A stretch of 64,000 bases of DNA from Verrucomicrobia bacterium UBA3624 (GTDB taxonomy: Bacteria; Verrucomicrobiota; Kiritimatiellia; RFP12; UBA1067): contig DFLH01000001.1 of NCBI GenBank assembly GCA_002373695.1, positions 114-64,113 of the forward strand, given 5' to 3'. The translations under genes were made by a program, and so were the position numbers. Numbering within the stretch: position 1 is the first letter of the stretch; the number at the start of each line of letters is the position of its first letter. Below are positions 1-57,820 of this stretch, piece by piece. The notes under the pieces are model-generated. The model saw only the letters and a list, made by a program, of their open reading frames with translations. It was not told the DNA's origin and made no database searches.

Positions 1-76
1 TGGCCTTGCCATGTTTCTTGTCCTTCCTGCCGACTTTGCGCCGGCGGGAAAGAGGATATCAGTTCCGCAAAACCGA

Positions 77-118
77 ATTGTCTCAAAATTGTCTCAAATT
101 TGTCTCAAAAATATCTCA
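77..118 (+). repeat. Four 11-bp-phased copies of GTCTCA(AA), starting at 80, 91 and 102, with a degenerate ATCTCA at 113
   Basis: Read directly: attGTCTCAAAattGTCTCAAAtttGTCTCAAAaatATCTCAtg. The period equals one helical turn. The array lies about 210 bp upstream of ATG 329. Confidence 0.85.
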
Positions 119-186
119 TGCGATTTGGGTTCTCCGAAGGGTCTGTCCCCACACGTTCCAATGTAGCAGATTATCATCTCCCGGTT

Positions 187-196
187 GGGGGGGGGG
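187..196 (+). repeat. Homopolymeric G10 tract in the upstream region of the first gene
   Basis: Read directly: ccggttGGGGGGGGGGaagaaaag. It lies 11 nt upstream of a TTGACG hexamer (208-213). Confidence 0.9.
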
Positions 197-328
197 AAGA
201 AAAGAGCTTGACGCTCATTCCAAAAAAAGATAGTGCCATTCTGATTTAGGATAGTGCATCTTCGGCAGGAATGCGGTATAATCCCAGTTGTTTTGCTGGG
301 GAAGTTTTACCGAAGAAAGGATGTCGGC

Positions 329-1519: not shown

Positions 1520-1532
1520 CACTGCCGATCCG

Positions 1533-3575: not shown

Positions 3576-3585
3576 GGAGTGGCTT

Positions 3586-6468: not shown

Positions 6469-6478
6469 AGCCAGGCAG

Positions 6479-7183: not shown

Positions 7184-7253
7184 AGCGACCGTCTTGCCGC
7201 ACCGCGTGAATCCTGGTAGGATCGAAAACTTAAGCAATGTAGCGAGGAGTACA

Positions 7254-9404: not shown

Positions 9405-9443
9405 ACCTAAATTCCTCATTTCGATTTACCACTCCATGTTATA

Positions 9444-9623
9444 TCTCACGCAGAGGCGCGGAGAGGCAGAGTTCGCAGAGTTTATCCCCATTGCTTGAGA
9501 ATGTATTTGTTTTCACCAATTGGGTGAAAGAACTTTCCGAGATTCTTCTTGTCATGGTTTTCTTTTCCATCGGATATCTGAACTTTCTCTGCGCTCTCCG
9601 CCTCTCTGCACCTCTGCGTGAGA
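9444..9623. repeat. MITE-like element: roughly 30-bp imperfect terminal inverted repeats flanking a central hairpin
   Basis: TCTCACGCAGAGG (9444-9456) is the exact reverse complement of CCTCTGCGTGAGA (9611-9623). The arms extend imperfectly inward (GCGGAGAGGCAGAG vs GCGGAGAGCGCAGAG). A central palindrome TTCACC-aattg-GGTGAA is present. The surrounding intergenic region is AT-rich. Confidence 0.6.
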
Positions 9624-9683
9624 CATTCAACCGAGGATTTTAGGCTGAAAGCATCCCCCGCAGTTTAAGCGAAGGAGACAAAC

Positions 9684-9791
9684 CATGAAGGCGATGTACA
9701 TTGACGAGAACAAGAACTTCGTGTGGCAGGACGTGCCCGATCCGGTCTGCCATGGCGAATTCGACGTGAAGCTGAAGATCAAAGTGTATTG
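9684..9791 (+). pseudogene. 35-codon remnant resembling the N-terminus of a Zn-dependent (MDR) alcohol/polyol dehydrogenase
   Basis: A strong SD (AAGGAG) precedes MKAMYIDENKNFVWQDVPDPVCHGEFDVKLKIKVY-stop. This resembles the MKAxVxxxxxxxxxxDVPxPxxxxGEVLVKVKA starts of the MDR family. It is truncated before the catalytic region. Confidence 0.35.
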
Positions 9792-9907
9792 AGATGCATG
9801 ACATTCGCTCATGAAAGTGTGGATGTACGGAATGTATTCCCTCATGAAAGTGTAAGTTGCTGCTTGTGTCCAGTACGATAATTGAGTACACTGAACGGAA
9901 GCCCACG

Positions 9908-30952: not shown

Positions 30953-32250
30953 TCCGAATTATCGACTGGTCTGCGGCAAAGCCGCAAAACAAGATTGTCA
31001 CGCGTTTCCTGCAGAGGAGCGCGTTCCCTGAAGAGGCCGAGAAGGCGGCGTCCGAGGTGCTGTCCGCCATTCGCGCGGAAGGCGATGCCGCCGTGGCGAG
31101 ATTCGTGGCAAGGTTTGAAGGCGCGAAATTGTCGCCAAAGCGGTTTCGCGTGACTGACGCGGAGCTTGCCGCCGCCGAGGCGAAGGTTCCGCCTGCGCTG
31201 AAAAGGGCTGTGAAGGACGCCCATGCGCGGGTGATGAGGTTCTCAAAGGCGTCGTTGCGCGATCCATGGTCGATGAAGACGCCACGCGGCGGCACGGCGG
31301 GCGAGTTCTATTCGCCGATGGACCGAGTTGGCGTGTACGTGCCGGGCGGAACGGCGCCTCTTGCCTCCACGAGCGTGATGACGGTGACGCTTGCCAAGGC
31401 CGCCGGCGTCAAGGAGATCGTGGCGTGCACGCCAGCCGGTCCTGCGGGAACTCCCAATCCGGTGCTTCTCTACGCTCTCAAGCTCGCCGGCGCCACGGAA
31501 GTCTACCGCATAGGCGGTATCCAGGCCATAGGCCTCATGGCATTCGGCACCAAGACCGTGCGCAAGGTGCAGAAGATAGTCGGCCCCGGCAACGCCTACG
31601 TTACGGCGGCTAAACGTCAGGTGTATGGCTATGTGGGCATCGACCAGGTGGCTGGGCCTAGCGAGATCGCCGTTCTGGCGGACGGCACTGTGCCGGCGGC
31701 ATGGGTGGCGGCCGATCTCCTCTCGCAGGCCGAACACGGCAGCGGCTGGGAGAAGTCTCTGCTCGCCACGCCATCGCATGTGTTTGCGGAAGAGGTCAGG
31801 CGGGAAATGCTGGAGCAGACGAAGACCCTCTCGCGCAAGGAGCTGGTCAAGCGAGTCTTCGACCGCGATGGAGTGCTGATTGCCGTCACGCCTACGCTGG
31901 CGGAGGGCCTTGAGCTTGTAAACCGCTTCGCGCCCGAGCATTTCGAAATCATGTGCAAGGATGCGATGAAGCTGATGAAGGGCGTGCGCAGCGCCGGCGC
32001 GGTGTTTGCCGGCGCATGGACGCCTGAGTCCGCCGGCGACTTCGTGGCCGGCCCTTCGCACGTGCTGCCCACCGGCGGCGCAGCGAACATGTTCAACGGA
32101 CTCACCCCCGACGACTTCCGCCGCCGCCACAGTTTCGTGGCGTTTACGCAGGCGGATCTTGCCGAGACGGCGCCTACAATCGCCGCATTCGCGCAGGTGG
32201 AGGGACTCGACGGCCACGGCCGCGCGGCGGCGATAAGGTTCGAGCGTTGA
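30949..32250 (+). CDS. hisD: Histidinol dehydrogenase
   Basis: Motifs: GVYVPGGTAPLASTSVM, GPGNAYVTAAKR, AGPSEI, SQAEHG, APEHFEI and GDFVAGPSHVLPTGGAA. Confidence 0.93.
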   Translation: MIRIIDWSAAKPQNKIVTRFLQRSAFPEEAEKAASEVLSAIRAEGDAAVARFVARFEGAKLSPKRFRVTDAELAAAEAKVPPALKRAVKDAHARVMRFSKASLRDPWSMKTPRGGTAGEFYSPMDRVGVYVPGGTAPLASTSVMTVTLAKAAGVKEIVACTPAGPAGTPNPVLLYALKLAGATEVYRIGGIQAIGLMAFGTKTVRKVQKIVGPGNAYVTAAKRQVYGYVGIDQVAGPSEIAVLADGTVPAAWVAADLLSQAEHGSGWEKSLLATPSHVFAEEVRREMLEQTKTLSRKELVKRVFDRDGVLIAVTPTLAEGLELVNRFAPEHFEIMCKDAMKLMKGVRSAGAVFAGAWTPESAGDFVAGPSHVLPTGGAANMFNGLTPDDFRRRHSFVAFTQADLAETAPTIAAFAQVEGLDGHGRAAAIRFER

Positions 32251-35200
32251 GGCTGTCTGTGATACAGGCATGCCATCATGTCGTCTTGTTTCTTTGCTGT
32301 GCGCTATTGGCTGCTCTTGCGGTCGCGTGCGTCCTGGTTTGGCTGAAGAGGACGGGGCATTGGTTATGTGGAGCATTGCGCCCGACATCGTTGGGCGCAT
32401 TCCTTGTTTTGGCGGTAATAGCCGCCGCCGAGGCGCAGAAGCGCGGTGCGCCGCCGGCAGTCGCGAAGTGTGGATCGCTGGCAGGGGCGGGCGTCCCGCC
32501 CACCTGCGGACGCGCGGGACGCGCGTCTCTGCCATCGCCCTTCCCTCGTGGAAGCAGCGCTCCCTCCGCTTCGGCCCCATGGTTTGCCGGCATCTTGCCC
32601 ACGCCCACGTCCGTGTGGCTCTCCGTCGCGTGGCCGCCGTCCCTGTTCCCGGCCGGCGGATGGCTTGATGTCAAGGCATCGCATGAACTGGCGGCGGACA
32701 CGTGGGAGAACGTTGGTTCCGTAGCCGTCGGGCCATGGGAGACGAATGTCGAGATGGAGGTGATGCACACCAATCTGCCCGAAGGCGCTAACAGCCGGGC
32801 GTTCTTTCAGCTTGAGGCCAGACCTGCCAGTTCCCACGCCGTCAGCGACACGGACGGCGACGGCCTTGCGGACGAGGATGAGACCGGGACAATCGCCATC
32901 CTGCCGTCATTCGAGTGGCATGACACGTCAGGGTTCGCGGTGGCATATGGCCTTCCTCCGTCCACGGGCCTTGAGCCGTACTTCGGGGCGAGCCTGGTAT
33001 CGTGTCTTCCGGAAAGTCCTGTCGTCTTGAACGTCCCATTGACTGGCATGGTCTCTTTCGAGAACGGCTTCGTGTCGCTGACCGGCCCCGGCGACTTCAC
33101 GGGATGGGCATTCCCAGTCATGCCTGCGCCGCTATGTTTCCGCAGCTACAACTCCGGCAGCTTCCTCGTGGCACCGTATTGGGGGTTTGGATGCGTCCAG
33201 TACGGTAACACGAACTCGTATATGCGGGCTGGCAGACTGGAGGATGGCACGGCGGTGGTGGAGTTCCACGACATCAAGTACAGCCGGTCGTCAGGCGACG
33301 GGATGACGTACCAGGTCATAGTGCCTGGCGGTACGGGCGACGTGGTGCGGGTAAGCTATATGTCGTCCGACATTTGGATGGACGGGTCGAATGTGGTCGT
33401 CGGCGTGCAAAACGCCCGCAGGGTGTTGCCGGACGGCAGTCTTTACAATCTGACGTGGGATTTTGCCGTTCGCGGGCCGATTCTGCCCGGAACGACGGTC
33501 GAGTACCGTTTCGGCACGGGGACAGACCCCGGTTCGTCAGATTCCGACAACGACGGGCTTGACGATGCGGCGGAAGATGGTTTGGGGACAGACCCCTGGA
33601 AGCCGGACACGGACGGGGATGAATTGTCCGATAGGGAAGAGGTCGCCCTGGGGTCAGACCCTTTGAGCAGCGACACGGACGGCGACGGGCTGGCGGACGC
33701 ATGGGAGGTGGCGAACGGGCTGGATCCGGCTTCAAGCATGGGCGGCGACGGCGCGTCCGGAGACCCCGACAGCGATGGCCTGGCTAATGCGCAGGAGCAT
33801 CAGCATGGGACAGACCCCATGCAGGCCGACACGGACGGGGATGGATTGCCCGACGGGGAAGAGGTCGCCCTGGGGACAGACCCTTTGAACGGCGACACGG
33901 ACGGCGACGGGCTGAATGACGGATACGAGGTCGATCTGCTGCAAAGCGACCCGTTGTCGCGTGACACTGACGGTGACAGACTTGACGATGCGGCGGAAGA
34001 TGGTTTGGGGACAGACCCTTTGAACGGCGACACGGACGGCGACGGGCTGAATGACGGATGGGAACATGCGTACGGTTTAGATCCTCTGTCCGACAACTCC
34101 GCGACAGAACGGGTTGACGATGACGCGACGGCGGATTTCGACAACGACGGAATGGCCAATCTGCAGGAATCGGGTTCCTGGACCAGTCCTTTCGCTTCCG
34201 ACACGGACGGCGACGGACTGGAGGACCCTGCCGAGATAGCGGCGGGGACGGATCCGTTGTCGGCGGATACGGATTGCGACGGGCTGCCCGATGGAGATGA
34301 AATGACGTCAGGCACGAATCCCTTGCAGCCGGATACGGATGGGGACGGCATGGACGATGGGTGGGAGCATCGACACGGTTTTGATCCCACGACACGCAAT
34401 GACGATACTGCGAGGCCAGATGATGACGCCGGGGCGGATCCCGACGACGATGGATTGACAAACGCCGAGGAGTGCGAATGGCGAACAGATCCGGGTTCGG
34501 CGGACACGGATGGAGATGGAGTTTGCGACGGCGACGAAGCCGCTCGGGCCAGCGATCCGTCGGATGCGGCAGATGGCGGCGTGTCCGGTAGCAGGATCCC
34601 GGTACGGTTCTATTTCGGCGATGACAGCGGCAGCCATTCGGAGAAGTACCGGTTGACGGTCGAGCCTGTGTTGGGGCCGCCCGGCGAACCTCGTCCGCGT
34701 GCCATTTCGTGGATCAATGCCCGTTACGGCGTAGGAGAATGGAAGACGGCCATGCTCAAGCCGGGATGGAGATACGAGGTCAGGATGAGATGGGTGTCGT
34801 GCAGCCAGGTTCTCGATGGCGTTTACTACCCGAACTACGACTACTCGCTGATGCCGGAGACGAATGCCCTGCCGGCAAATGTCGTGGTACGTGACAAGGA
34901 GGGCCTCTTCAAGATGTGCTACTACGGGATTGACCGTTACGGACAGCCGGATTTTCCGGAATTGGACAAGACGGCGACCATCGACGTGTACAGGTTCGAT
35001 ATCGAGGAGATAAGGTTCAACCACGATCCCGATTCATGTTCGGCCGATGCGGTGAGCATCAGGCGGAACGCCCGCCAGCCGTTCGACCCGTCGCGCGGCG
35101 AATGGTGGCTTGGCGGCGGTGAGCCGAAGAACGACCCGGTGTGCTATGCGGGCGGTTCCCTGCCAACCGTCAAAGCCAGGTTGCGGGTGTCGCCGCCGCT

Positions 35201-36107
35201 TGATTCGGCGAGATTGTCCGCCAGGGCTGTCGATCCGGGTTCGCCGCTTGGCGGCTTGGGCCGTCAGACGGTTGCATTTGCAAACGGCGAATCGGGATTT
35301 ACGGATTTCCCGATGGATGCGGCAATTCCTCGCGCGGTGCGCAAGACAGATCACCGTTGGGAGTGGCAGGTGTCGCGGATGGACGGCGCGGCCGTTGCGG
35401 ATTTCGTATGCGCCACTACGGGACCGCATCGCGTGTATACGGTCATCGGCGAACCTGTCGAACCATGGGTGGCGAATGGCGCGGACGTGCAGAACCCGTG
35501 GGTAGACGCTCTTGAACTCGCCTGCGCGGTCGCCGACGGCAAGAGCGACAAGGTGCAGGCGCTTGCCGCCATCACGACTCACCTTTTCTACAACATGGGG
35601 TTTCAGTATGAGTCTAGAATGGGCGTGGCCAGCTATTATTCGTATGAACTTAACCGTTTTACATTGTCGAAGTACCTTGTTTCCGCCAAATCGTCTGTAA
35701 ACTGCTATGACCAGGCTTTTGGCGTTGCGACGCTTGGCAATTTACTGGGGATACATTCCACCCCGATGTTTACGCATCCGTTTGGCTTCATCAATACGGT
35801 TGCTCTAGTTGGAATCGGTCCTTGCAACAATCCATTTTATGCGGGACCTTATACGACTGTACATAGCATGTTAACCGGGGACGATGATGTACTCCGATCG
35901 GCCTTTGGCAATCATATGTACGTGTTTGCCGAAGGCGTGGTTTTTGATGCCTGTGCAGGGCCTGCGCTGGGCACGCAAACTCATGTGCAATTTTTGCGAA
36001 GTATGATTGACACTTCTACATGGGACGAACTGGTAATGAGTTTCTTCACACCGGTTGTTGGAGTATCTGAGACACATCCTTTAGAACGCAAGTATGTTAT
36101 TGACTAG
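32247..36107 (+). CDS. Membrane-anchored or secreted giant protein: 15 thrombospondin-type-3 Ca-binding repeats plus a C-terminal papain-like (transglutaminase/NlpC-P60 superfamily) module
   Basis: Two N-terminal hydrophobic segments are present. DxDxDGxxDxxE repeats occur from about 32850 and densely across 33540-34560. The candidate triad is C1153 (VNCYDQAF, codon 35703), H1223 (GNHMYVF, 35913) and D1234 (VVFDAC, 35946). The start is ambiguous: TTG 32247 overlaps the hisD stop, and GTG 32259 is the alternative. Confidence 0.7.
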   Translation: MRLSVIQACHHVVLFLCCALLAALAVACVLVWLKRTGHWLCGALRPTSLGAFLVLAVIAAAEAQKRGAPPAVAKCGSLAGAGVPPTCGRAGRASLPSPFPRGSSAPSASAPWFAGILPTPTSVWLSVAWPPSLFPAGGWLDVKASHELAADTWENVGSVAVGPWETNVEMEVMHTNLPEGANSRAFFQLEARPASSHAVSDTDGDGLADEDETGTIAILPSFEWHDTSGFAVAYGLPPSTGLEPYFGASLVSCLPESPVVLNVPLTGMVSFENGFVSLTGPGDFTGWAFPVMPAPLCFRSYNSGSFLVAPYWGFGCVQYGNTNSYMRAGRLEDGTAVVEFHDIKYSRSSGDGMTYQVIVPGGTGDVVRVSYMSSDIWMDGSNVVVGVQNARRVLPDGSLYNLTWDFAVRGPILPGTTVEYRFGTGTDPGSSDSDNDGLDDAAEDGLGTDPWKPDTDGDELSDREEVALGSDPLSSDTDGDGLADAWEVANGLDPASSMGGDGASGDPDSDGLANAQEHQHGTDPMQADTDGDGLPDGEEVALGTDPLNGDTDGDGLNDGYEVDLLQSDPLSRDTDGDRLDDAAEDGLGTDPLNGDTDGDGLNDGWEHAYGLDPLSDNSATERVDDDATADFDNDGMANLQESGSWTSPFASDTDGDGLEDPAEIAAGTDPLSADTDCDGLPDGDEMTSGTNPLQPDTDGDGMDDGWEHRHGFDPTTRNDDTARPDDDAGADPDDDGLTNAEECEWRTDPGSADTDGDGVCDGDEAARASDPSDAADGGVSGSRIPVRFYFGDDSGSHSEKYRLTVEPVLGPPGEPRPRAISWINARYGVGEWKTAMLKPGWRYEVRMRWVSCSQVLDGVYYPNYDYSLMPETNALPANVVVRDKEGLFKMCYYGIDRYGQPDFPELDKTATIDVYRFDIEEIRFNHDPDSCSADAVSIRRNARQPFDPSRGEWWLGGGEPKNDPVCYAGGSLPTVKARLRVSPPLDSARLSARAVDPGSPLGGLGRQTVAFANGESGFTDFPMDAAIPRAVRKTDHRWEWQVSRMDGAAVADFVCATTGPHRVYTVIGEPVEPWVANGADVQNPWVDALELACAVADGKSDKVQALAAITTHLFYNMGFQYESRMGVASYYSYELNRFTLSKYLVSAKSSVNCYDQAFGVATLGNLLGIHSTPMFTHPFGFINTVALVGIGPCNNPFYAGPYTTVHSMLTGDDDVLRSAFGNHMYVFAEGVVFDACAGPALGTQTHVQFLRSMIDTSTWDELVMSFFTPVVGVSETHPLERKYVID

Positions 36108-36120
36108 ACAAGGAGAAGCA

Positions 36121-36789
36121 ATGAAACGTGTAAATCTAATCGTGGTTGCCTCATCGTTCTTGATCTCATTTTATGCCCCATACACGGTTGCGACAGCTTC
36201 CTGGCATGACGGTTTGCCATCTGGAACATTCATAGACGGAACAACATCTCAACAGATGCAATGGAGACGGAATCGGGGACTGCAACTTATGCAGTATGCG
36301 GGTGTTGCAAGTGGCAATGAAACCATTATCTGCACGAACTGGACATGCCCGACGTCGATAATCGTAAATTTGGAGTGTTACAATGTCGTGACAAATTGGT
36401 GGCGAGGTTTGATTGAATATGACATTCTCACTACGAATCAGCCGCAGTTGAAGGTTGCATGTGGGAAAATCGTCTTATCCAATAACGAGCAAGAAGCGCG
36501 CCTGGATGCGTTCACAAGTGAAGCCGCGACGAGCATGGACTTGAGCATATATGCACATGGTCTTGTGGTTCAATCTGTAGATTCAAACACCAATATGATG
36601 TTCTTGACCAACGCACATTACAAACCGACTGACATTCGGCAACTTCTATACAAGAACATCCGCATAAAGTACGAAGTTGCAAATACTGCCACAAATACCG
36701 TGGCAACCAACGCGCTTGCTTTCACATCTGAACTCATCAATGCGGGTTTGCCGGAGGAAGATCGCATCCCGTTGCCGCCTACGCCTTGA
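36121..36789 (+). CDS. Low-GC orphan protein with a signal peptide or N-terminal anchor (candidate partner/immunity protein)
   Basis: AAGGAG lies 6 nt upstream of the ATG. N-terminus: MKRVNLIVVASSFLISFYAPYTVATA. Composition is AT-rich and continuous with the 3' end of the upstream gene. I recognise no family. Confidence 0.6.
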   Translation: MKRVNLIVVASSFLISFYAPYTVATASWHDGLPSGTFIDGTTSQQMQWRRNRGLQLMQYAGVASGNETIICTNWTCPTSIIVNLECYNVVTNWWRGLIEYDILTTNQPQLKVACGKIVLSNNEQEARLDAFTSEAATSMDLSIYAHGLVVQSVDSNTNMMFLTNAHYKPTDIRQLLYKNIRIKYEVANTATNTVATNALAFTSELINAGLPEEDRIPLPPTP

Positions 36790-36918
36790 ACATGCTACAA
36801 CAATCGCCCCATGAAACATCTGTACGACAGCTTGCGCGGATACATGAAGCAAGAAGAGGCCAAGCCCATGTCAAAGAACAAAAACATTGTCCGTCGCAAA
36901 AAAACTGGCGAATCGCCA

Positions 36919-36948
36919 TTGACATAATGCGCAGGGGGGGGGTATAAT
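36919..36948 (+). promoter_or_regulatory. Consensus sigma70 promoter TTGACA-18 bp-TATAAT whose spacer contains a G9 tract (36934-36942)
   Basis: Read directly: TTGACAtaatgcgcaGGGGGGGGGTATAAT. It lies 36 nt upstream of ATG 36985. Confidence 0.7.
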
Positions 36949-36984
36949 CGTGTAAACTTTAACTTACACGAAGGACTCCATACC

Positions 36985-39615
36985 ATGCGCCTTGTATTTG
37001 CTGTTGCGGTTTCCGCCGCCATGCTTGCGACGACCGGTCATGCCGCAGGCCTCTCTGCCAGCCACTACGTCCAGGACGGGCTGGTCGCGCTCTTCGATGC
37101 CGAAGACAACGAAGGGACGGGAACGCACAATTCCTCCGCCTCTCAATGGAAGGATCTGAAGGGATCGGCGTATGTAAATTGTGTCGCCGACAGCATCTGG
37201 TCGTCGCGCTACTTCTGCAGTCCCACCAACCAGAACTACATAAAGGATATGCCGACGTTAGATCGCAACTCGATTACGGTCGAGGCTGCGTTCGACATGA
37301 TTTCCCACGCCACTAAAAATTACGCTTGTATCGTCCACGGCGGCGAATATTTCAAGTTTTTCTATAACGACCCTGATGCCACCGGTGTCGTCGGATACAT
37401 GTGCCCCGTCGGCGGTATATCCAATGTCGATGGTTCCGGCTACAAATGGGTCAAGACGGCAAGCGGTTTCAGTTCTGGCACGGTGTCCTTCTTTTCCGGC
37501 AGCGATGGTTATGGCGTGCGCGCCGACGGCATGGCAACGGGAAGCCCGTCGGATTACCATGTGGCCATCGCCAACTATACGCTCTCCGCCAACGCCTGGT
37601 CGCTCAACCAGAACGAGTTCGCGGGGAACTACTATTGCGTACGCTGGTACGACCGGGCCTTGAGCGACGACGAGATGCTGGCGAACGCGTTTATCGACAA
37701 ATTGCGTTTCAGGTCGTACATGCTTGCAGGGGACGGTAGCGAAGCCGACTGGAGCGCTGTCGCGTGGGAGGCGCCGTATGATGCGACGGCGTCCGCGCCG
37801 TCGACGGACACCAACGAGTTCGTGCGGATTGCAAATGCGGAGGTGAACGTGGCCGCTTCCGACAACGTGGGGCTGGCGGGGCTCTCCCTCGAAGACGGAG
37901 CCGTGCTGGACATCGCCGATGGAGCGGTTGTTTCCGTTAAGGTGCTTTATGTCGAAGGCGTCGAGATCGAAAGGGGCATCTACTCCGGCGACGAGACGAA
38001 GGGCAGGAAGGTTTCGTGGCTTAACGGTTCCGGCGTACTGAAGGTGGCAGGAGGAAAGGACGTCGACGATTTCCCGGAGACGTATCTCCTTCCCGGCGAG
38101 GACGGATGGTTTCAGTTCGGTACGCAAAGCGGCAGTTACGGGAGCGTAGACACCTACGCCGGCGCGAAGAGGGAATATTTCATAGGCGAACATGTCGATT
38201 GGAGGAAATGCAGTTTCCCCGCAGGAGGAAACAACAAACTTCGCCTTGCAGGCTATTCGCTGATTGGTGCAATTCCGTCCGGCACCTTTTCGGTGGTGGA
38301 TCTGTCTAAGGCCACGATAGTCCAGCTCTATGAACCGCAAATGTTCGAGGATGGAACGCAGGCGACCGTTCCTTACGGCGTCATTCTGCGGTATCATCCT
38401 GGAACCTGGGAGAAGGACGAATCGACTGGACGATACTACCGCATGGGCTCTTCGAGCGATCCATATGCGGGCGACATCTATCTGAACGGGGCCGCCGCAG
38501 TGCTTCGCGTTTCGGTGGACAACGGACTCAAGGAAGTACAGTTCTCCGGGCTGTTCAGCGGTACCGGCAAACTGCAGTTCAGCGCATGGGGGAACCGGGC
38601 GAGGTTCTCCGGCGGATTCGCGCTGAACAACTACATCGGGTCGTTTCAGCACGGATCGCTGGTCTGGCTGGATACGACGATGGTCACAAGCCGGCTGGAA
38701 GGTGTCACGTTCGCCGGGTGCAACGATTCCTATGTCAACGACCAGGCGTCCGGCTATCGCGTGAACGGGCTGTATTTCGGCAAGAACGGCAGTGAAGAGA
38801 CGGCTGACCACGAACTGTACTTGAAATATGTCAACGGCACGGCAAAGGTCGGAATCAGCACCACTACCGGCATACGGCTCCGTTCTGGCGCGGTGCTTGG
38901 CATCTGGGGCGGAAATACCGTACATGCAGGATATATGACGGCAAACGGTTCAGTCCATGTCATTGCGCGTCCGCAGGAATTGAAGTCCACATTCAATGGC
39001 TGGCATTTCAAGGCCGTCGGCGCCGGAGATGGCAACTTCGTGGTGGACGAGGTTCGTGTTTCCAGCAAGCTTTACATGTCAGAACACGTAAACATGACGG
39101 CAGGAAATGTGCTGGCTAATGCGTGCTTCGATTATACGTTTGCTACAAACGAGACGACCGTATCGTTCTTGGATATCACCAACGCATGCGATTCGACCGC
39201 GACGGTGGTCGCTAACGACATTGCATCTCTGCCGGCGCGGCTTTCGGGATTCACGGGAACGGTCAGCCTTTCAAGTGCGGCCACGAAGTCCTACACGATG
39301 CCGGTCGACATGACGCAGGGGACGGACATCCTGTACAACACGGTAGGGTGCATTGGTTCCGGTGCGCTTGCCGGAGCGCCTGCGGCGGGTGCGATAGATG
39401 CGACGTTCCCGACGGACTCCGAGCCGGTCAAGGGCGACTATTCGCTTGCGCGTTTCACCTCCGGCGGCGAAGCCTTGGCCGGTTGGACGGTGACGTTGAA
39501 CGGTCAGGCGTTGACGGATGTCCAGGTGGGTGGCATGATGGTGTCCGTGGTGAAGGATTCCACGGGAATTTGGCTGAAGGTGCGGGAAACGGGAATGACG
39601 TTCCTGTTGAGGTAG
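36985..39615 (+). CDS. Secreted LamG-domain protein with a long beta-rich C-terminal region
   Basis: Signal peptide: MRLVFAVAVSAAMLATTGHAAG. LamG-type ending: YYCVRWYDRALSDDEMLANAFIDKL. The C-terminal tail is ETGMTFLLR. Confidence 0.75.
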   Translation: MRLVFAVAVSAAMLATTGHAAGLSASHYVQDGLVALFDAEDNEGTGTHNSSASQWKDLKGSAYVNCVADSIWSSRYFCSPTNQNYIKDMPTLDRNSITVEAAFDMISHATKNYACIVHGGEYFKFFYNDPDATGVVGYMCPVGGISNVDGSGYKWVKTASGFSSGTVSFFSGSDGYGVRADGMATGSPSDYHVAIANYTLSANAWSLNQNEFAGNYYCVRWYDRALSDDEMLANAFIDKLRFRSYMLAGDGSEADWSAVAWEAPYDATASAPSTDTNEFVRIANAEVNVAASDNVGLAGLSLEDGAVLDIADGAVVSVKVLYVEGVEIERGIYSGDETKGRKVSWLNGSGVLKVAGGKDVDDFPETYLLPGEDGWFQFGTQSGSYGSVDTYAGAKREYFIGEHVDWRKCSFPAGGNNKLRLAGYSLIGAIPSGTFSVVDLSKATIVQLYEPQMFEDGTQATVPYGVILRYHPGTWEKDESTGRYYRMGSSSDPYAGDIYLNGAAAVLRVSVDNGLKEVQFSGLFSGTGKLQFSAWGNRARFSGGFALNNYIGSFQHGSLVWLDTTMVTSRLEGVTFAGCNDSYVNDQASGYRVNGLYFGKNGSEETADHELYLKYVNGTAKVGISTTTGIRLRSGAVLGIWGGNTVHAGYMTANGSVHVIARPQELKSTFNGWHFKAVGAGDGNFVVDEVRVSSKLYMSEHVNMTAGNVLANACFDYTFATNETTVSFLDITNACDSTATVVANDIASLPARLSGFTGTVSLSSAATKSYTMPVDMTQGTDILYNTVGCIGSGALAGAPAAGAIDATFPTDSEPVKGDYSLARFTSGGEALAGWTVTLNGQALTDVQVGGMMVSVVKDSTGIWLKVRETGMTFLLR

Positions 39616-47607: not shown

Positions 47608-47669
47608 GGGCGCGCGTCCCGCGCGCCCGCTGCGCGGTCGCGACCGCCGCGAGATTAGGCTTGCAAGCC
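47603..47669. repeat. GC-rich palindromic intergenic element (REP-like family member)
   Basis: GGTAGGGGCGCGCGTCCCGCGCGCCC contains the rpoN TAG stop (47605-47607). It is followed by GCGCGGTCGCGACCGCCGCG and the palindrome GGCTTGCAAGCC. Confidence 0.7.
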
Positions 47670-47795
47670 ACGGCGGAGGTTTGATAAACTTGCGCCAAAC
47701 GCAGGGTGGATTGTGCCCTGGAAGGACTGGCATGGACCGGCAGACGGACGATTTTAGAGTGCTCCGCAAGGGGCGGAAACTTTGAGGAGAGCGTG

Positions 47796-50700
47796 ATGAG
47801 GAGAGACGAAACAGAGCCGAGGAAAGGGGTAGGCAACGGCTGGCGCGTCGTGCGCCGGCTTCCTGTCGCTTGCTGTCTCCTGCTTGCGGCTCTCGCGTGT
47901 ACGCGCACGTACGCGTACACGAGGCTCGGAAACGACCGCGTACTTTTGATGAACAACGATACGAACATCTACAACTCCGTATCGTGCCAGGGATACAACG
48001 ACACAGACCAGACCAAGGAGACGTACTGGGTGCATAGCACGGAAAGCCCCGGTTTTAGTTTTAACCTCGGGGTTGGCATGTTTCATACGTTGTTTTCTAG
48101 CGATGGGACGGCACTTTGGCAACTCGACTACTGTCGAGCGCGAAGTAGCATCGCAACTGCTTCTGCGACGAGAAATTATCTACCTTGGGCCGCTTCTTCG
48201 GAATCGGTAACAACGAAGGGATCTTATGCCTTTACCTCCGTAAGCGAGGTTGGAAATATCGTTTTTTGCAACACAACGAATGCCGTAGCATATTCGCCGT
48301 GCATAACGGGGGTGGGTACGGTTTATTTCGATGCCGTCAATAGTTACGTTAATGTTCCGGTTTCGTTTGGTATAGATATTGCGACAAACGTTTTGTCTGA
48401 AGCCGATGAGGATGTGAATTTATGGTCTACCAACTATAATCAATTTGCATGGTTTGCCTGCCCATTTGATGTTCTTACTAAGACAGATAATGGAGTGTGG
48501 GGTGTTATAACCGATTTGGCGGCAACTGGCGTTACGGATTTTTCGCTTGCGTGTACCAAGGGCAACAGTAAGATGTTTTATAGAATCCGCGCTAACGTGT
48601 ATTCCTTTCTGAACGGGTATCGGGGAAATGTTAGGTTTCGGATTGTTCGCAAGAGTTCAAATGGCACGACGTTAGACGCAAACTTCTTGCTCGTTGACAA
48701 CATTGTCGCCTCCTATCCGCCTATGACGACGGAGATTGCGCCGGCGGGCACGTACGATACTTCCGCAGAGGGTGCCAACGTCACCGGCTACGAAGGTGCC
48801 TTCAATCCGCCTTTCCTTTCCGCCGGGGCGACGAACGTCCATACTCTGGCGTACTGCTCCTATGTCACGAACGGATGCGAGACGATAGAAGACCTGGAGT
48901 CAGCCTTCACCGTTTCCAACGTGCATGTCGTCGGAAGGTGGCGTTACCTGAACCAGGCCGCCGGCGACTGGCAGACCAACGCGCTTGCCGTCTCCGGCAG
49001 GCAGATATATTCTACAGCCGGCTTCAATCTGCCTGACAAGGTTGGAGATTGGGAGTTCTATTTTACGGCAGACCAGTCTGCGCCGCACTACGTGCCGGTG
49101 GACTATACGGATGGGACCGCAACGGGAACCGCCTATGGCAACGGATGGACCGAAGAGCTGACAAATATCGTCTGCCGGGCCAACTTCGCCAGATCCCAGC
49201 CCTCCGGCGGCACGGACTGGTTTGCCAGAATCCGCGAAGGCGCCAGCGATTACGAGTACGTTTCCCTCGTCGGGCAGATAACGACCAACAACGTCTGGGG
49301 CGTGGACATGCATACCGTCGAGAACAACGACGGCGATCGCATGGAGCTGACTGGCGACCATACGTGGCGGTATCATTTCTACGTTCCGACCAATGCGGTG
49401 GGCGAGCGCGTGCGCTTCCACTTCGAGGGCCGCCGCCTCTACACGAACGATACGCCATTCGTCTACCACTCGGAAACGAACGTCTGGTATGCCAACAGCA
49501 CCAACGTGCCGTATCTCCCGTACACCGTGGCGGCCACGGGAAATACCGACATAGAGCTGACGCTTGACGACGCCAGCACGCATCTGCTGTTCGAATTCAA
49601 CGACGATCTAGGCTCATTCTCCATCTCGCACGCCACATACCAGAATTTCAACCTGTGGTCCGACGCCGTGGACGACTACCGCGGCGACTACACGTCCACC
49701 ACCGGCGTTTCCGACGTCAAGCGCAGATTCGACGCCGCCATCCAGGATTGGGATCCCACATCGTTCGCGCGGCCCGCCCTCTGGCGCGAAGCCTTCGACG
49801 CGGAAGCCGGCGATTCCAGGTATCCGCTCGGCGTGTTCAGATCGTCCTGGCAGACTCCGAACGGATGGAGCGCGGAGAACGGCATGTTCACCCTCCGGCG
49901 CCGCGGCGAAACTGGCATTGCGTTCCAGATGCAGGGGCAGGGGCTCGGCACTCTTTCGCTGGACAAGCTTTCGTCGTCGGCCATTCCACGCGGCATCGGC
50001 GAAGTCCGTTTCACCGCTCGCGTCGCGCAGAACCCCGATTTCAACGATTTCGACTACTACTTCCTGGGCGGAAGCGAGAAGAACTACGCCATCAGCGCGA
50101 AGACGACGATGAGCCGGCTGTACGTCGACAACACGTACAGCCCGTCCGACATTTCGCCTACGACGCCGTCCGTTTCTCTCGTCGGCTACCTGCGCGGCCA
50201 GCGCGACGGCTGCTACGAGTTCCGGGTTTCGCGGACTGGCGAGCGCGAACTGACCGCCGCGATCTACCGCTGGAAGAACCTTGCGGCCACGTGTCTGGCC
50301 TCGAACATCATCTACACCGGATCGGCCGGCGTCAGCACCGAACAGAAGAACACGTACGGGGTCGGGCGCACCATCAACACGGACAGCTCCAGCAGCGCGA
50401 CGCCCAATCTCAACCCCGCGTTCTACAATGCCGACAACAACCTGCTCGTCCCCAAGAACGCATCCGGCATCAACAACTGGACTGTCATGTGCTTCTCGCT
50501 GTACACGTCGGAAAATGGCGTACGGCTCGACGGATACCTCTCCAACACGCGCAACACGTACGATCTGAAAGACGACGTCTCCCGCGTGAGACGCGTGGTG
50601 GCGTACGAGGATACGAGTGCCGGCCGCATCAAGGCAGGCACCTTTGGCGTCGGATCCGTGGGGTGCCAGGCGGCATTCGCTCGCATGTACCAGCATGCGT

Positions 50701-53700
50701 TCAACGACGAGTCCGACTGGACGATGGGCATCAACACTACGGGAACGGCGCTCAGCAGCGCCACCAGATCCCTGGACGAATGGGACTATCTCGAAGACCG
50801 CTGGCGGCAGCTCGCCGCAGGCGAGACTGCAAGTTATGGCGCGTCGGGATTCATCGCGCAGATTCCCACGAACCAGACGGTAAAACTGCTGTTCGCGAAG
50901 CAAGACGGCGGATGGTTCGACAGCGGCTACGAGCAGATAGTGGACTCTTTCGCTACGAACACGTTCTCGTTCGCGCCGTGCGTGTCGCCCAGCTACATGG
51001 TGCGTCTGCAGGCCGGCGGCACCACTGAAGACGTGCGGACCGACATAGTGGTGGACGACGTGGAGGTGCTGGCGTGGCGCGGCGTGGACATGGACGACCT
51101 CTCGTCCAAGGACGGCCGTCCTGAAGAATGGGTCTATACGATGGGATCGGTGGAATCGACCGTGGATATCGAAGGCAGCCCGTATCTGCTGAATCCGGCC
51201 GGCACCAACGGCTACGTCTACGTGTTCACGAACGCCGGAAGCACGGTCACGTTCAAGCCGACGATGGATACGATCATCGACCGTGTGCTGCTGGTGAGCG
51301 GCAGCGGCGTGGTGAACGAGCAGAACTGGTCGGCTTCGCCTGTGACGCAGAAGACGAACACGACGGTCAGAATCGTGGTAGGCAGCTCGAACAAGGTGTC
51401 CACGGTGACCGGAATCACGGGGAAGGGGACGATCACGGCGTCCGCCGGCAACCCCGCGTCGCGTACGAGCGACATAACGGGGGAGACCGCCACATATGGC
51501 GGCGTTCGCGGCCAGGCGCGTGTGATTCTGCGCGTGCGCAACGCCAGCAAGGTGTGCGTGCTCCAACCCGCCAGGAACTATCCGCTCGACGATTCGTCGC
51601 ACCCCGGAATGGACTATCCGATGAGCCTGCGTTCCCCCTACATGGGCAACGGCCTTTCGGTGTTCAGCTTCTCGTATCTCAATGCGCACACGAACGCGAA
51701 CCTGCTGCTGCAGATATGCACCAACATGACCGAGGCCGGCGAATCCTACACGCCTACGATGCGTTCGGCGAGCGACACCACGTATTGGACGACGGTGACG
51801 AACTGGTCGTTCGCGAACATGGACGACGACAAGAGGGCAAGCGGCACGCTGGCGTACTTCATGAGCCTTCGCGCGCCGTGTTCCGGCCTGATGCGCCTTG
51901 TCGTCGATCCGGCCGTAGTGTCCAACGCCCTGTCGCAGGCGGAGGACGGGCGCGATCTGGACTATGGCAAGGTAATGGTCACGAAGGTGTTCTGCTACGA
52001 CGAACCGGCGCTGGACATGCGCTCCTGGTGGGGATGGAACCTGTACACGGCAGGCTGGGACGCCACCTCGTCGCAGCCAGGGCCGTGGGCCTACCTTACG
52101 GATTCGCCAAGCGGCCTCTCCTGCTCCCTGAACTTCTCGGCCCTGGTCAGCGACAACAGCAAGACCGATCTCGCGAATACGTATGGCGTGGGGCTGGCGA
52201 ATCCAGACCGTGAAGAGGACTACAAGAAGAACAATCCGTTCGTGCAGTGCCCTGCCATGACGAACGGCATCGGAAGCATCAGCTTCCGGGCAAGGACTTT
52301 CGAGACGAACGCGACGGCCCGTCCGTCTGTGGTCGTCCTCTACGGCACGAGCGAGCCGGATGCGTACCAGGCGGACGACTACGGATGGCAGAGCTGGACG
52401 CGCCTGGCCGAATTCATCGTATCCAACAACACGTACCAGACGTACTCGTGGAAGACGAACCTCCTGAACAGCCCGTATCAGGCCATGCGTCTCGAAGTGG
52501 GCGCCGCCCGCCACGGGCGCAGCAAGCCTGCGGCGTCCGGCACGGTGAAGGGCTGGGAAACGCCCGTTTCCACGAACAGCGTGGATTACTGGCCGATCCA
52601 GCGCGTGTTCCTGGACGAGGTGTCCGCGTCCGAGCCTGTCGCGCCGAGGTTGAAGTTCTTCGACGTGCGGCCGTTCCGTTCGAATCTCGCCGGCGGCGCT
52701 TCGGTGGCCATCACGAACATCAACGACAAGGACGAGCAGCCTCTCCTTGGCGAGTCGTGGGGGATACAGGCGCGGATCGAGCCGCAGCAGATGTCCGACG
52801 AGCTCGATCTCGACAGCCTGCGCGTGTTCATGGCCGCGTACAAGGGCAGGAGCCCGTGGGGCTATGCCAAGTGGATGAACGAGGCGTCGTGCGTCCAGGC
52901 CGAGCTGCAGTGCGTGGATGCCACAAACCACATCTTCCGCAGCACGTACGACAATCCCGCCAGCGTGATGGCGCCTTTGGAGGCGATGAGCGCCGCCGAT
53001 CCGTATGCCGTCGTGCAGTACCACGTGTGGGCGACGTACACAAGCAAGGATTCGCCGGTGACGAACCGCTACGATCTCGAATCCGCCGACTGGGTCCAGC
53101 CGTCCTGGTACTGGCCTGTCGACTACAACGAGACGTACGGCCTGGGATTGAAGGCCAACTTCAGCGCCTATGCGATCTTCGACACCATCTCGCCGGGACG
53201 CGCCTGGTTCAACGAGATGAACTTCAATGACGAATACAGCAAGAACCGCCAGTTCATCGAGGCCGTCGTGCCGGAGAACGTCAATCTCGCCAGGTGGAAG
53301 GTGCGCCTTACGGAAAAGTCCCTTTCGCAGCGCGTGATCGTTTCCTTGGGCGTTTCCAGCGATGCCACGTTCACGTCCAAGACGGGCAGGAAGCCGAACA
53401 TCGACTCCACGAACCATTTCACGGTCGTGGCGCTGGGCACCCCGGCCGGCAAGAGCGACGGGTCGTTCGCCAGCGGGGAGCTGGACGGCTACTGGGAAAA
53501 CATCACGGACTCGTCGATGGCGATTACGCAGGGCAAGCTTGACCGCTGGAACACGTACGGCCTGGAGCTTATAAGGCCGAGCGGCGTGGTGGAGCACCAG
53601 GTGGTGATCCAGGGCACGAACGGCCTTGCAGGTACGATCTTCGAGGCGGGTGGTTCCGGAACGAACGTTCTGGCCAAGATACTGGAAAAGGACGGTGCGG

Positions 53701-54917
53701 CGTCCAACTGGTTCTATGCCGGCGAGGAGCTCGGCGACAAGGAGCGCACGATCGGAGTGTGGCGCGGCCATGGCGAGAAATCGTGGCAGGGCGGCGCCAC
53801 ATGGACGAACGACCTTACGGCCACGCCTGGCGAGCTCAACCTGCGCAACGGCGCGCGCCAGACGATAGACAAGTGGCTGCTGGACCCGAACGGCACGAAC
53901 GTGTGGATCTACGCCAAGGTGCTGGGGCAGCACGTGTGGCAGTATGTGGACGGCAACCTCGCCAGTTCCAACCGCAATGCGGTGATGGTGGTGCCGATCA
54001 ACAGCTCCACCAACATCCGTTATATCGTAGATGCGTGGTACGAACTGGCCAACTGCACCGTGAACGAAACCAACAAGGTGACTCCTTCCGCCGTGGCCGG
54101 TGCCAAGCGCACTTTCGAGATCAAGCTGAACGATATCAAGGAGACGCAGAACGTGAGCGTGGGAGAAGCCGCCGACAGCAGGCTTCTTTCCAGGTGGAAC
54201 CTGGCGGCGGACGATCCGTACAGCCCTGCGATCCTGCACTGGCTGCTCGAAAAATGGCCAGACAACGATCCTGACGACATAAGCCTGGCGGAGTTCTGGC
54301 CGCTTTCGGCGCAGGGGCGTCCGCCGGAGAGCAAGCTGGAGCATCTGAGCCTGAGGGACATGTACTGGCTTGACATTTCCCCGGTGCAGAGCAACTGGGT
54401 GCTCATAGCAGGCATGGGCGGCTGGGGGCAGGGGCCTGGCGGAAGCCCCGCCGTGGAGCCGGTCGTCATATCCAAGGACGGCGAGGAGTACACGAACGTG
54501 ATAGTGACGGTGTCGATGATGATCACCAACACGCTCTCCGGCGACCATCATCCGCCGTACACGATCCAGGGTCTGCGCCCAGGATCGTCGAGCGCGGACG
54601 AGTTCGCGGGAATGAGCGGCAACTGGACGAGTGCCACGTTCAAGGTGACTGGCGCCCTGCAGATTCCAGGCGAGAGCGACAGGTTCAGGCCGCTGCAGTG
54701 GTTCGTGTTCGACGAGAATTCGTTCGACGACAACGGAATGGCCCGCATAGAGATTCCCGACCAGACGAAGGTCGGCACGGCAGGCTACAACTACCGCTGG
54801 TACAATTTCTTCGGCACGCCCGTCTTCTACAGGTGGTCGCTCGATGAGAATCCGTCCGACCTGCTTTCCACCAAGCTGCTGAATTCCAATTCCGTACATA
54901 CCGTCATCTCACCCTGA
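47796..54917 (+). CDS. Giant (2,373-aa) secreted protein of unknown function with several MAM/CBM-like beta-sandwich modules
   Basis: GAGGAG is the RBS. Signal peptide: [21 protein letters not shown]. The frame is uninterrupted for 7.1 kb. The protein is rich in Trp, Tyr, Asn and Thr. Recurrent module starts match G-x-G-x-(V/I)-x-F, and module ends match (V/L)D(D/N/E)(V/I). Confidence 0.8.
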
Positions 54918-57800: not shown

Positions 57801-57820
57801 ATTTTTTTGGGGGGGGGGGG
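57801..57820 (+). repeat. T7 run directly followed by a G12 homopolymer
   Basis: Read directly after the tRNA-Gly CCA: TTTTTTTGGGGGGGGGGGGcaggtg. Confidence 0.9.

Follow-up and report, generated by a model that had tools for sequence, protein, structure and literature searches.

[quoted passage not shown] The locus lies in a 64,000-nucleotide stretch of Kiritimatiellae DNA, hereafter called the window. Like the Tae/Tai pairs, it combines a papain-like Cys-His site, predicted here, with a signal-peptide protein encoded next to it, and homologues of its C-terminal module follow VgrG or DUF2169/PAAR-like proteins or are fused to a PAAR-like domain, as is the case for T6SS cargo and PAAR-fused effectors. 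Unlike the case of these effectors, no T6SS marker was found near the copy in the window, whose fusion partner is a protein of about 1,080 residues, and no Pfam or NCBIfam model matches the module. With about 370 amino acids in a beta-sandwich and a transglutaminase core, it also differs from amidases of the small NlpC/P60 type, which have about 150 amino acids.

With Rhs and CdiA systems, the locus shares a putative C-terminal toxin, a tightly linked immunity-like gene, and a drop in GC content that lasts through the downstream gene, and the wider family shares with them tandem and orphan cassettes and several N-terminal delivery contexts per toxin domain. In contrast to these systems, RHS/YD or haemagglutinin repeats are absent, the body of the protein consists of thrombospondin type 3 (TSP3) repeats and a NIDO-like domain, and the tips found on TSP3 scaffolds are mostly variants of one fold and not unrelated toxins. 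Reading of the translation and of the alignment around the GC break revealed no PxxxxDPxGL or VENN demarcation motif. Polymorphic toxins are recognized by a C-terminal toxin domain that is combined with differing N-terminal trafficking parts (Zhang et al., PMC3482391), and this is the arrangement that we found for the module. The same 2012 survey does not mention a TSP3/NIDO-like body as a toxin scaffold, in agreement with a preliminary description of the window, which had remarked that TSP3 repeats are not known as a delivery scaffold of described toxin systems.

Tox-TGase (Zhang et al. 2012, PMC3482391) and Pfam Transglut_core have in common with the module a papain-like transglutaminase fold with a Cys-His-Asp triad, found in secreted toxins. 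The module differs from Tox-TGase and Transglut_core (PF01841) in that it has no HMM match at E <= 1, has motifs of its own, and carries a beta-sandwich in front. Animal transglutaminases (TG2, TG3, factor XIII) show the same order of an N-terminal beta-sandwich and a catalytic core, but the module is only 8-13% identical to them, with TM-scores of 0.33-0.40, lacks their C-terminal barrel domains, and has a triad spacing of 70/11; no relation was detected at the sequence level.

A recurrent low-GC tract at the end of the giant gene

A two-change-point likelihood fit placed a low-GC segment at positions 35585-36999, with a GC content of 0.464 inside versus 0.599 outside, which bears out the sharp drop at about position 35575 reported in the preliminary description. 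In 200-nt windows, the GC content is 0.61-0.65 up to about position 35599 and then 0.42-0.52 until about position 36999. The tract, which spans most of the catalytic core, then the small downstream gene, and runs on through the intergenic DNA until the next gene begins, is the lowest-GC 1,415-nt window of the 64 kb (window mean 0.619, sd 0.033; next lowest non-overlapping, 0.522). Earlier hand counts proved exact (0.40 at 35641-35700 and 0.583 at 35401-35460), and the low GC content does extend, as had been proposed, to a promoter with a run of nine G residues: a perfect TTGACA-N18-TATAAT site with the G9 run inside it is located at 36919-36948, at the end of the tract. GC3 falls from 0.72 ahead of the break to 0.47 behind it, the small gene having a value of 0.51, and GC1/GC2 are also lower after the break (0.65/0.51 to 0.50/0.41); the drop is mainly one of codon usage.

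Nearly all of 19 loci of the Kiritimatiellae group show the same break, with little contrast in one of them (L032), and it therefore is not a recent swap private to the window locus. In most of these loci, the break precedes the Cys codon by 100-200 nt, and in five it is located further upstream. Proteobacterial tblastn matches begin at query residue ~205, just some 24 residues ahead of the break, which places it close to the sandwich/core junction; an early reading that had put it in the middle of a domain was dropped for this reason.

A C-terminal module with a predicted transglutaminase fold

The giant protein ends in a beta-sandwich domain (residues 916-1066; 34992-35444, plus strand), which corresponds to strands 36-186 of the 406-residue query and is conserved in the homologues, followed by a transglutaminase-fold catalytic core (residues ~1080-1278; 35484-36080, plus strand). 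The sandwich region has a host-like GC content, with a GC3 of 0.73. The AF2 model of the C-terminal 406-residue query (pLDDT 89.9, pTM 0.87) consists of a beta-sandwich and an alpha/beta core, with a pLDDT above 90 over most of the core. A Foldseek comparison with the PDB gave 59 matches at E <= 1e-3 (best E 5.5e-8, probability 1.0), and the 50 of them that were listed all belong to the animal transglutaminase family (TG2, TG3, factor XIII, fish transglutaminase, protein 4.2), at the modest TM-scores given above.

The putative catalytic Cys1153 (codon TGC, 35703-35705, motif VNCYDQA) and Asp1234 (codon GAT, 35946-35948, motif VVFDACAGP) are invariant in 42 sequences, and His1223 (codon CAT, 35913-35915, motif GNHMYVF) is at least 90% conserved in the same set; all three codons are on the plus strand. 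In the model, Cys273 (Cys1153) is the first residue of helix 273-286, His343 (His1223) starts strand 343-348, and Asp354 (Asp1234) ends strand 351-354, the two strands being adjacent. Variant subfamilies of the catalytic half keep the Cys, His, and Asp residues too. The three codons and the Cys-70-His-11-Asp spacing, read directly from the sequence, are as given in the preliminary description. Its assignment of the tip to the papain-like superfamily gains from the structure prediction that it had suggested as a check, since a papain-like (transglutaminase) fold is predicted, transglutaminases are the top Foldseek matches, and the triad is conserved.

The module has its own motifs, VNCYDQA, CNNPF, and FDACAGPALGT. 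A Pfam search with the C-terminal 235 residues gave no match at E <= 1, neither to a transglutaminase nor to a toxin HMM, and the whole protein matched TSP3_bac only; NCBIfam gave no relevant match for the module, and sequence and profile searches of the PDB gave none. The model and the conserved triad support the prediction of a papain-like, transglutaminase-fold Cys-His-Asp enzyme domain.

The TSP3-repeat scaffold

The gene encoding the giant, presumably exported TSP3-repeat protein is located at 32247-36107 on the plus strand and was recognized as an open reading frame with Pfam TSP3_bac matches; its product has up to 1286 amino acids. Its start is uncertain, the candidates being TTG at 32247, GTG at 32259, or the start chosen by the gene caller at about 32613 (the gene caller gives 1164 amino acids for the giant protein in L065). 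We favour the long start because homologues that start with ATG have the same double hydrophobic leader at the N-terminus. As read from the sequence, this leader (32274-32435, plus strand) is composed of a first hydrophobic segment, a Lys/Arg-rich loop, and a second hydrophobic segment ending in AAAEA/QKRG, and the same layout is present in eight other proteins (P0190, P0191, P0192, P0194, P0204, P0217, P0225, and P0324). According to the positive-inside rule, it would be a membrane hairpin or a signal peptide that places the remaining protein outside the cytoplasm.

A NIDO-like, beta-rich scaffold domain follows (residues ~200-430; 32844-33536, plus strand), which is 48-63% identical in L004, L012, L013, and L015; the paralogous region of P0190 has a weak Pfam NIDO match (E 0.0044) below the cut-off. 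Next comes an array of bacterial TSP3 calcium-binding repeats (33516-34860, limits approximate, plus strand), to which Pfam TSP3_bac (PF18884) matches in 11 stretches with an E-value of 4.5e-55. The NCBIfam models CglD and MtsD matched residues 424-559 and 650-719 in part, and the pilus-like NCBIfam model Amuc_1099 also matches the TSP3 region, all three with scores that fall far short of the respective cut-offs. When the NIDO-like domain was used to search for scaffolds, the TSP3 pattern dominated the result, and only three distant loci were retrieved.

The downstream gene encodes a candidate immunity protein

The small gene (36121-36789, plus strand) encodes an exported protein of 222 amino acids, the candidate cognate immunity protein. 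Its ATG at 36121 is 13 nt past the TAG stop codon of the giant gene (36105-36107), and a Shine-Dalgarno sequence, AAGGAG (36110-36115, plus strand), is located 2 nt after that stop and 5 nt before the ATG. The signal peptide noted in the preliminary description is present, with about 26 residues ending in ATA/SW. The label of orphan does not hold, as 31 homologues were found, and every one that was checked is located 8-17 nt behind a TSP3-repeat gene or a module-bearing open reading frame cut by the contig end. Conservation within the family is unusually high, and the C-terminal tail is almost invariant. Comparison by hhalign with the downstream family of the Proteobacteria gave an E-value of 9e-5 and a probability of 59%, a moderate link that suggests that the small protein probably belongs to a wider immunity superfamily. 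Structure prediction, which had been recommended for this gene as well, produced an AF2 model with a pLDDT of 84 and no fold match, Foldseek finding nothing significant in the PDB (best E 0.036, TM ~0.1-0.2). Pfam, NCBIfam, and PDB sequence and profile searches returned nothing relevant.

Homologues of the module and their genomic settings

A pattern search for homologues was built on 12 closer sequences. The module family comprises 2,398 cluster representatives at E <= 1e-3, nearly all of which carry the name "hypothetical protein" in their sources. Its proteins have 200-1775 amino acids and carry the module at their C-terminal end or close to it, in several N-terminal contexts: fused to a PAAR-like domain, as a stand-alone protein adjacent to VgrG, on a TSP3 scaffold, or fused to OmpA/PG_binding domains. 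VgrG is encoded immediately 5' of the module in L054, L056, L050, and L045, a gp5-like spike protein upstream of it in L053, and DUF2169 plus Tox-PAAR-like proteins upstream in L010 and L011. T6SS markers are present within 6 kb upstream of the module in 13 loci from proteobacterial and myxobacterial homologues, and at least eight proteins have an N-terminal PAAR-like domain (PF13665) fused to it. A homologue from Luteimonas (L055) contains OmpA and PG_binding_1 domains.

A downstream open reading frame of at least 80 amino acids was found in 52 of the 53 genome loci, with a gap of -31 to +31 nt in 46, and an N-terminal hydrophobic signal in 45 of the 58 downstream reading frames. These form several BLAST families with a common C-terminal motif, and hhalign connects the two largest with an E-value of 9e-5. 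One locus (L007) contains five tandem modules, one of them a fragment, and three are directly followed by a signal-peptide reading frame; another (L034) has duplicated putative immunity genes, and fragments of the putative toxin occur in L053, as an orphan, and in L044. A single metagenome-assembled genome harbours four loci (L016, L017, L018, and L044). The effector/immunity reading of the preliminary description is thus strongly backed by the context of homologues elsewhere (VgrG, DUF2169, PAAR-like domains, downstream reading frames, and arrays).

In the Kiritimatiellae, the module is fused to TSP3-repeat proteins, and the flanking genes vary from locus to locus. With tblastn, no T6SS markers (VgrG, PAAR, DUF2169) were detected in the fetched flanks of any Kiritimatiellae locus; in the window, no T6SS genes are annotated at 26-47 kb, ten other large open reading frames contain no T6SS domain, and no stand-alone cassette or, by tblastn, paralog of either gene was found elsewhere. 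A tblastn search of plasmids with the Burkholderia homologue gave no match. Several related records are titled as rumen or omasum samples.

Possible exchange of the tip among relatives

The nearest relatives have the same tip, the same kind of downstream gene, and the same GC break, and the protein is 57-77% identical to that of L004, evenly on both sides of the break. A swap private to the window locus was rejected on these grounds; the module swap that had been proposed for it is not evident there and finds its counterpart only elsewhere, in L014 and in variant catalytic halves. The preliminary description had also suggested aligning related loci to see whether tip and downstream gene are exchanged as a unit; the nearest relatives keep both. 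It had further considered that relatives might carry the tip at native GC with no linked gene, and the nearest ones instead show a low-GC tip with a downstream gene. A search for orthologous loci in JGI metagenomes through the downstream 876-residue neighbour found none.

Similarities on the two sides of the break broadly agree (r = 0.67). L014 is discordant, being 57-71% identical to the clade of the window before the break and 45-49% after it, and variant catalytic halves stand behind a conserved sandwich, including that of P0324 on a TSP3 scaffold. Distant TSP3 bodies with other ends gave only weak hints of other tips (L070 and L071). Low GC3 persists among cassettes that are only 45-66% identical, so that a simple recent import does not explain it.

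Discussion

As a whole, the segment is best explained as the 3' end of a toxin-immunity unit that comprises two genes, a reading that we consider likely, and the two products are a probable periplasm-acting antibacterial toxin-immunity pair. The leader encoded by the first gene would put the remaining giant protein outside the cytoplasm, where the NIDO-like domain, together with some 11 TSP3 repeats that bind calcium, would form an extended stalk that ends in the beta-sandwich and the predicted transglutaminase-fold enzyme domain with Cys1153, His1223, and Asp1234. This domain would most likely attack an amide bond of a target located in the periplasm or cell envelope of competitors, possibly the peptidoglycan stem peptide or an envelope protein, by hydrolysis, deamidation, or cross-linking. 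The second gene appears to be closely coupled to the first in translation (13-nt gap, strong Shine-Dalgarno sequence), and its periplasmic product may inhibit the enzyme domain by binding to it, in the envelope of the producer and of sister cells. Proteobacteria and Myxococcota would deliver the module through type VI secretion; in Kiritimatiellae, it would be carried by the TSP3-repeat scaffold. The signal peptides of the candidate immunity proteins and the OmpA and PG_binding_1 domains of L055 count in favour of an envelope target; the parallel with peptidoglycan amidases is an inference. The low GC content of core and immunity gene, apparently a family-wide trait of the Kiritimatiellae cassettes, would be best explained by repeated lateral replacement of both, as with Rhs and CdiA tips, through recombination near the sandwich/core junction.

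A drop in GC content without evolutionary meaning, caused by an assembly chimera or by the amino-acid composition of the domain, is hardly credible. The concomitant fall in GC1/GC2 does indicate that amino-acid content contributes, but GC3 is down by 0.25, and the catalytic domain is encoded at 0.59-0.72 GC in homologues from Burkholderia, Byssovorax, and Chromatiaceae, so its protein sequence does not force low GC and cannot be the sole cause. A chimera is ruled out by five independent assemblies, that is, five listed contigs from different samples and sources, in which the DNA is 100% identical across the junction, and the break recurs in the loci of different genomes. The enzyme might also be directed against the producer itself, cross-linking or trimming its own surface or matrix, with the small protein as export chaperone or inhibitor and no competitor as target. 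The NCBIfam models that match the TSP3 region far below cut-off are named for surface or motility proteins (CglD, MtsD, Amuc_1099), searches around the Kiritimatiellae loci turned up no gene for T6SS or other contact-dependent delivery, and the small-protein family is unusually conserved up to its tail, whereas classic immunity proteins diverge fast. We nevertheless regard a self-directed enzyme as unlikely, because the same module is adjacent to VgrG or fused to PAAR in at least 13 loci, because tandem arrays, orphan fragments, and four copies in one genome resemble an arsenal and not a housekeeping function, and because varying flanking genes and foreign composition speak against a core function.

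Less probable still is an effector against eukaryotes (rumen protozoa, fungi, host cells) or phages, in which case the downstream protein would assist in secretion as a chaperone or serve as a co-factor. Among pathogens, transglutaminase-fold toxins often hit eukaryotic proteins (Tox-TGase, T3SS/RTX effectors, PMC3482391), animal transglutaminases are the best structural matches, and rumen or omasum appears in the titles of several related records. However, almost every copy is followed by a linked signal-peptide gene, which is a signature of self-protection against an antibacterial, periplasm-acting toxin, eukaryote-directed toxins being typically without linked immunity genes (PMC3482391), and one homologue has OmpA and peptidoglycan-binding domains.

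The toxin-immunity pair can be set in a wider proposal, which we advance tentatively, judging it somewhat more apt to fail than to hold in all its parts: the TSP3 giants with the two-segment leader would be a T6SS-independent polymorphic-toxin scaffold, the module and its partner would be a new effector-immunity superfamily (~2,400 clusters) common to the T6SS and the new pathway, and constant lateral exchange would keep the cassette compositionally distinct. Literature searches brought up no paper that deals with the module family, with toxin scaffolds made of TSP3 repeats, or with a T6SS in Kiritimatiellae, no experiment on the toxicity, immunity, or secretion of any family member, and no description of interbacterial weapons in the gut/rumen phylum of Kiritimatiellae. 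If true, the toxin-immunity reading adds a large antibacterial family without a curated model (no Pfam, NCBIfam, or PDB entry), and provides this family with a catalytic triad that can be tested and with the periplasm as its predicted site of action. The TSP3 repeats and the conserved leader point to a toxin-delivery scaffold in Kiritimatiellae, most likely one that has not been described before. The GC break recurring within one protein module would offer a clean case for the exchange of tip and immunity gene or for resistance to amelioration.

A transglutaminase-fold module at the C-terminus of a TSP3-repeat protein

The gene at 32247-36107 on the forward strand encodes a protein of up to 1286 residues, in which a Pfam search detected 11 bacterial thrombospondin type 3 (TSP3) repeats and, beyond these, no known domain. 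For its last 406 residues, 42 relatives were found, mostly metagenomic, with a best identity of 60% among other proteins; the only informative source name among them is a Kiritimatiellae MAG. In the alignment of 42 sequences, the Cys and Asp residues of the putative triad are invariant and the His residue is at least 90% conserved, and the motifs VNCYDQA, CNNPF, GNHxFV, and FDACAGPALGT stand out. The codons for Cys1153, His1223, and Asp1234 were read from the sequence at 35703, 35913, and 35946, exactly where a preliminary description had placed them.

None of the curated sequence families covered by searches of Pfam, NCBIfam, and the PDB matches the catalytic module. An AlphaFold2 model of the C-terminal part (pLDDT 89.9, pTM 0.87) consists of a beta-sandwich (residues 916-1066) followed by an alpha/beta core (about 1085-1278), in which a helix begins at the Cys residue and the next two strands bear the His and Asp residues. 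A Foldseek search against the PDB returned animal transglutaminases as top matches (E 5.5e-8, probability 1.0, TM 0.33-0.40), and these enzymes have the same order of sandwich and core. The model and the structural matches support, at the level of the fold, a papain-like module of the transglutaminase type, and together with the conserved triad they uphold the superfamily that had been proposed from the sequence alone.

The downstream genes form families of candidate immunity proteins

The small gene (36121-36789, 222 amino acids) starts with an ATG at 36121, 13 nt after the stop codon of the big gene, and is preceded by AAGGAG. It had been regarded as an orphan, a view refuted by the 31 homologs found (identity 36-55%); in all loci checked, such a homolog follows, after 8-17 nt, either a TSP3 gene or a module ORF cut by a contig end. 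Family members have a signal peptide in common, along with a conserved core, LVCTNWxCPTSIVVNA, and a tail, IINAGLPEEERIPLPP, that scarcely varies; this C-terminal tail, IINAGLPEEERIPLPPxP (36715-36786), is near-invariant in the 31 homologs and more conserved than the body of the protein. An AlphaFold2 model of the small protein (pLDDT 84) gave no fold match in the PDB. The genes beyond the pair vary from locus to locus.

A scan over species-representative genomes yielded 53 loci with the module, from Kiritimatiellae/Lentisphaerae, Planctomycetota, Acidobacteriota, Fibrobacterota, Myxococcota, and many Proteobacteria, such as Burkholderia, Variovorax, Polaromonas, Gilliamella, and Cellvibrio. 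In 52 of these loci, the module is followed by an ORF of at least 80 amino acids, with a gap of -31 to +31 nt in 46 of them and frequently with a 4-nt overlap in the Proteobacteria, and 45 of 58 downstream ORFs have an N-terminal hydrophobic signal. BLAST divides the downstream ORFs into families of 18, 13, 4, 4, and 3 members and some smaller ones; a C-terminal element, 'hYKNhxh then helix', is common even to those unrelated by BLAST, and this element or tail may serve for docking or sorting. Because the two largest families match each other in a profile-profile comparison (E 9e-5, probability 59%), the sequences suggest a single, diverged superfamily of candidate immunity proteins.

The low-GC tract and its origin

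At about 35600 of the window, the GC content drops from 0.61-0.65 to 0.42-0.52; near 37000, it rises again. A two-change-point fit delimits a segment at 35585-36999 (GC 0.464 inside versus 0.599 outside), which is the lowest-GC 1.4-kb stretch of the 64-kb window (mean 0.619, sd 0.033). The drop described beforehand is thus real, with its break at about 35585-35600, and two GC values that had been counted by hand proved exact on recount. The shift is chiefly one of codon usage: GC3 drops from 0.72 ahead of the break to 0.47 behind it, the small gene has 0.51, and the neighboring genes have 0.78 and 0.71. An assembly chimera at the break was ruled out, since five contigs among the matches listed, from various samples and sources, carry tract DNA that is 100% identical.

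Elsewhere in the window, the second-lowest stretch (47651-49065, GC 0.52) is overlapped by the 5' part of a 2403-amino-acid ORF (47706-54917) without a match in Pfam; a dip to 0.54 at 9001-10000 surrounds small minus-strand ORFs, and the ORF at 59409-60545, with a GC3 of 0.50, marks a further local dip.

In profiles anchored on the Cys codon, core and downstream gene alike are low in GC in almost every one of 19 loci of the Kiritimatiellae group, so that the break is not private to the window; the contrast is slight in one locus (L032). In most of these loci, 100-200 nt separate the break from the Cys codon downstream of it; in five (L012, L016, L018, L020, and L028), the distance is 300-900 nt. 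The GC content regains the host level past the downstream gene. A module swap had been proposed for the window locus. No recent swap is seen there, the break being common to the relatives and the protein identity to the related locus L004 (57-77%) being even across it. Among loci, the similarity of the parts before the break broadly agrees with that of the parts behind it (r = 0.67), with L014 discordant at 57-71% before and 45-49% after. Variant catalytic halves (VNCxDCA...YHEVxW...YDxC and ANCLDSA...FHCF...YDS) are found behind a conserved sandwich, including on the TSP3 scaffold of the homologous protein P0324.

We favor recurrent lateral replacement of the core together with the immunity gene, with recombination near the junction of sandwich and core. 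The protein sequence does not force a low GC content, because Burkholderia, Byssovorax, and Chromatiaceae encode the domain at a GC of 0.59-0.72. Lateral replacement leaves over the persistence of low GC3 among cassettes that are just 45-66% identical, and selection for AT-richness may keep the cassettes in this state.

Distribution, genomic context, and site of action of the module

At E <= 1e-3, an exhaustive profile search gave 2,398 cluster representatives; proteins of 200-1775 amino acids end with the module or carry it close to the C-terminus. The source names read 'hypothetical protein' save two, 'Transglutaminase-like domain-containing protein' in UniRef and 'DUF4150' in JGI. The functional reading of the module rests on the context of this wider family. 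In most proteobacterial loci, the match is confined to the catalytic part, from about residue 205 of the 406-residue query onward. VgrG (Phage_GPD, T6SS_Vgr, DUF2345) is encoded directly 5' of the module in four loci (L054, from Burkholderia pseudomultivorans LMG 26883; L056, from Variovorax boronicumulans; L050; and L045), a gp5-like spike upstream of it in L053, and DUF2169 with Tox-PAAR-like domains before it in L010 and L011. By tblastn, such T6SS-type markers occur within 6 kb upstream in 13 loci, none of them from Kiritimatiellae. A PAAR-like domain is fused directly to the module in at least eight proteins.

Copies are also found in arrays, as would befit a toxin arsenal. Locus L007 contains five tandem transglutaminase-fold modules (1-9000), one of them a fragment; a signal-peptide ORF stands directly behind three, and an Arg/Pro-rich leader (MNANPP..RRPPPRRATARRGRPGG) opens three of the four full-length modules. 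The flanks in this genome have 70-78% GC, and GC goes up where three of the modules begin and down in the core. The candidate immunity gene is present in two copies in L034, toxin fragments occur in L053 and L044, and four loci belong to one MAG. Together with the exported partners, one homolog that bears OmpA and PG_binding_1 domains makes the cell envelope the probable site of action.

TSP3 repeats as a putative toxin scaffold

Many module-bearing TSP3 proteins open with a leader (32274-32435 in the window) made of a hydrophobic segment, a Lys/Arg-rich loop, a second hydrophobic segment, and G(A/S)TK. With this leader, by the positive-inside rule, the stalk of TSP3 repeats and the toxin would both lie outside the cytoplasm, a topology that would account for the need of a periplasmic protector; the leader may also be the hallmark of a particular export route. 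If the big gene is read at its full length, its TTG start overlaps the stop codon of hisD (TTGA, 32247-32250); as related loci have a different upstream neighbor, any coupling to hisD would concern this genome alone.

A 2012 survey of polymorphic toxins (Zhang et al. 2012, PMC3482391) lists Tox-TGase and never mentions thrombospondin repeats, and in later literature we found no paper that gives TSP3 repeats as a toxin scaffold. Other tips may occur on this scaffold, as hinted at by two distant loci with TSP3 and NIDO-like domains: one protein (L071, 4744-11991) ends with an AHSLGN GxSxG lipase-like motif, a weak DUF900 match, and a low-GC tail, and the other (L070, 2-4660) has a C-terminal domain of unassigned family and is followed by a 411-amino-acid signal-peptide ORF.

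The pair fits best among the polymorphic toxin systems, as a variant with predicted toxicity, target, and delivery and, in its Kiritimatiellae form, with TSP3 repeats as a new putative toxin scaffold. It would combine a transglutaminase-fold effector family without a curated model with a candidate periplasmic immunity superfamily. The effector/immunity reading of the preliminary description was largely right, apart from the orphan status and the recent swap.

The promoter site beyond the pair

A perfect sigma-70 consensus (TTGACA-N18-TATAAT, 36919-36948), a predicted promoter, marks the end of the low-GC tract ahead of the next gene (36985-39615), which encodes an 876-amino-acid protein with a signal peptide; this protein matched no family in Pfam or NCBIfam, and a pattern search of JGI metagenomes returned no relative. 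A G9 run occupies half of the 18-nt spacer and could act as a slipped-strand switch for phase variation; its length is the same, G9, in each of the five other assemblies. The window has other such runs at 187 (G10), at 1452 (G9, followed by TACAAA), and at 57809 (G12).
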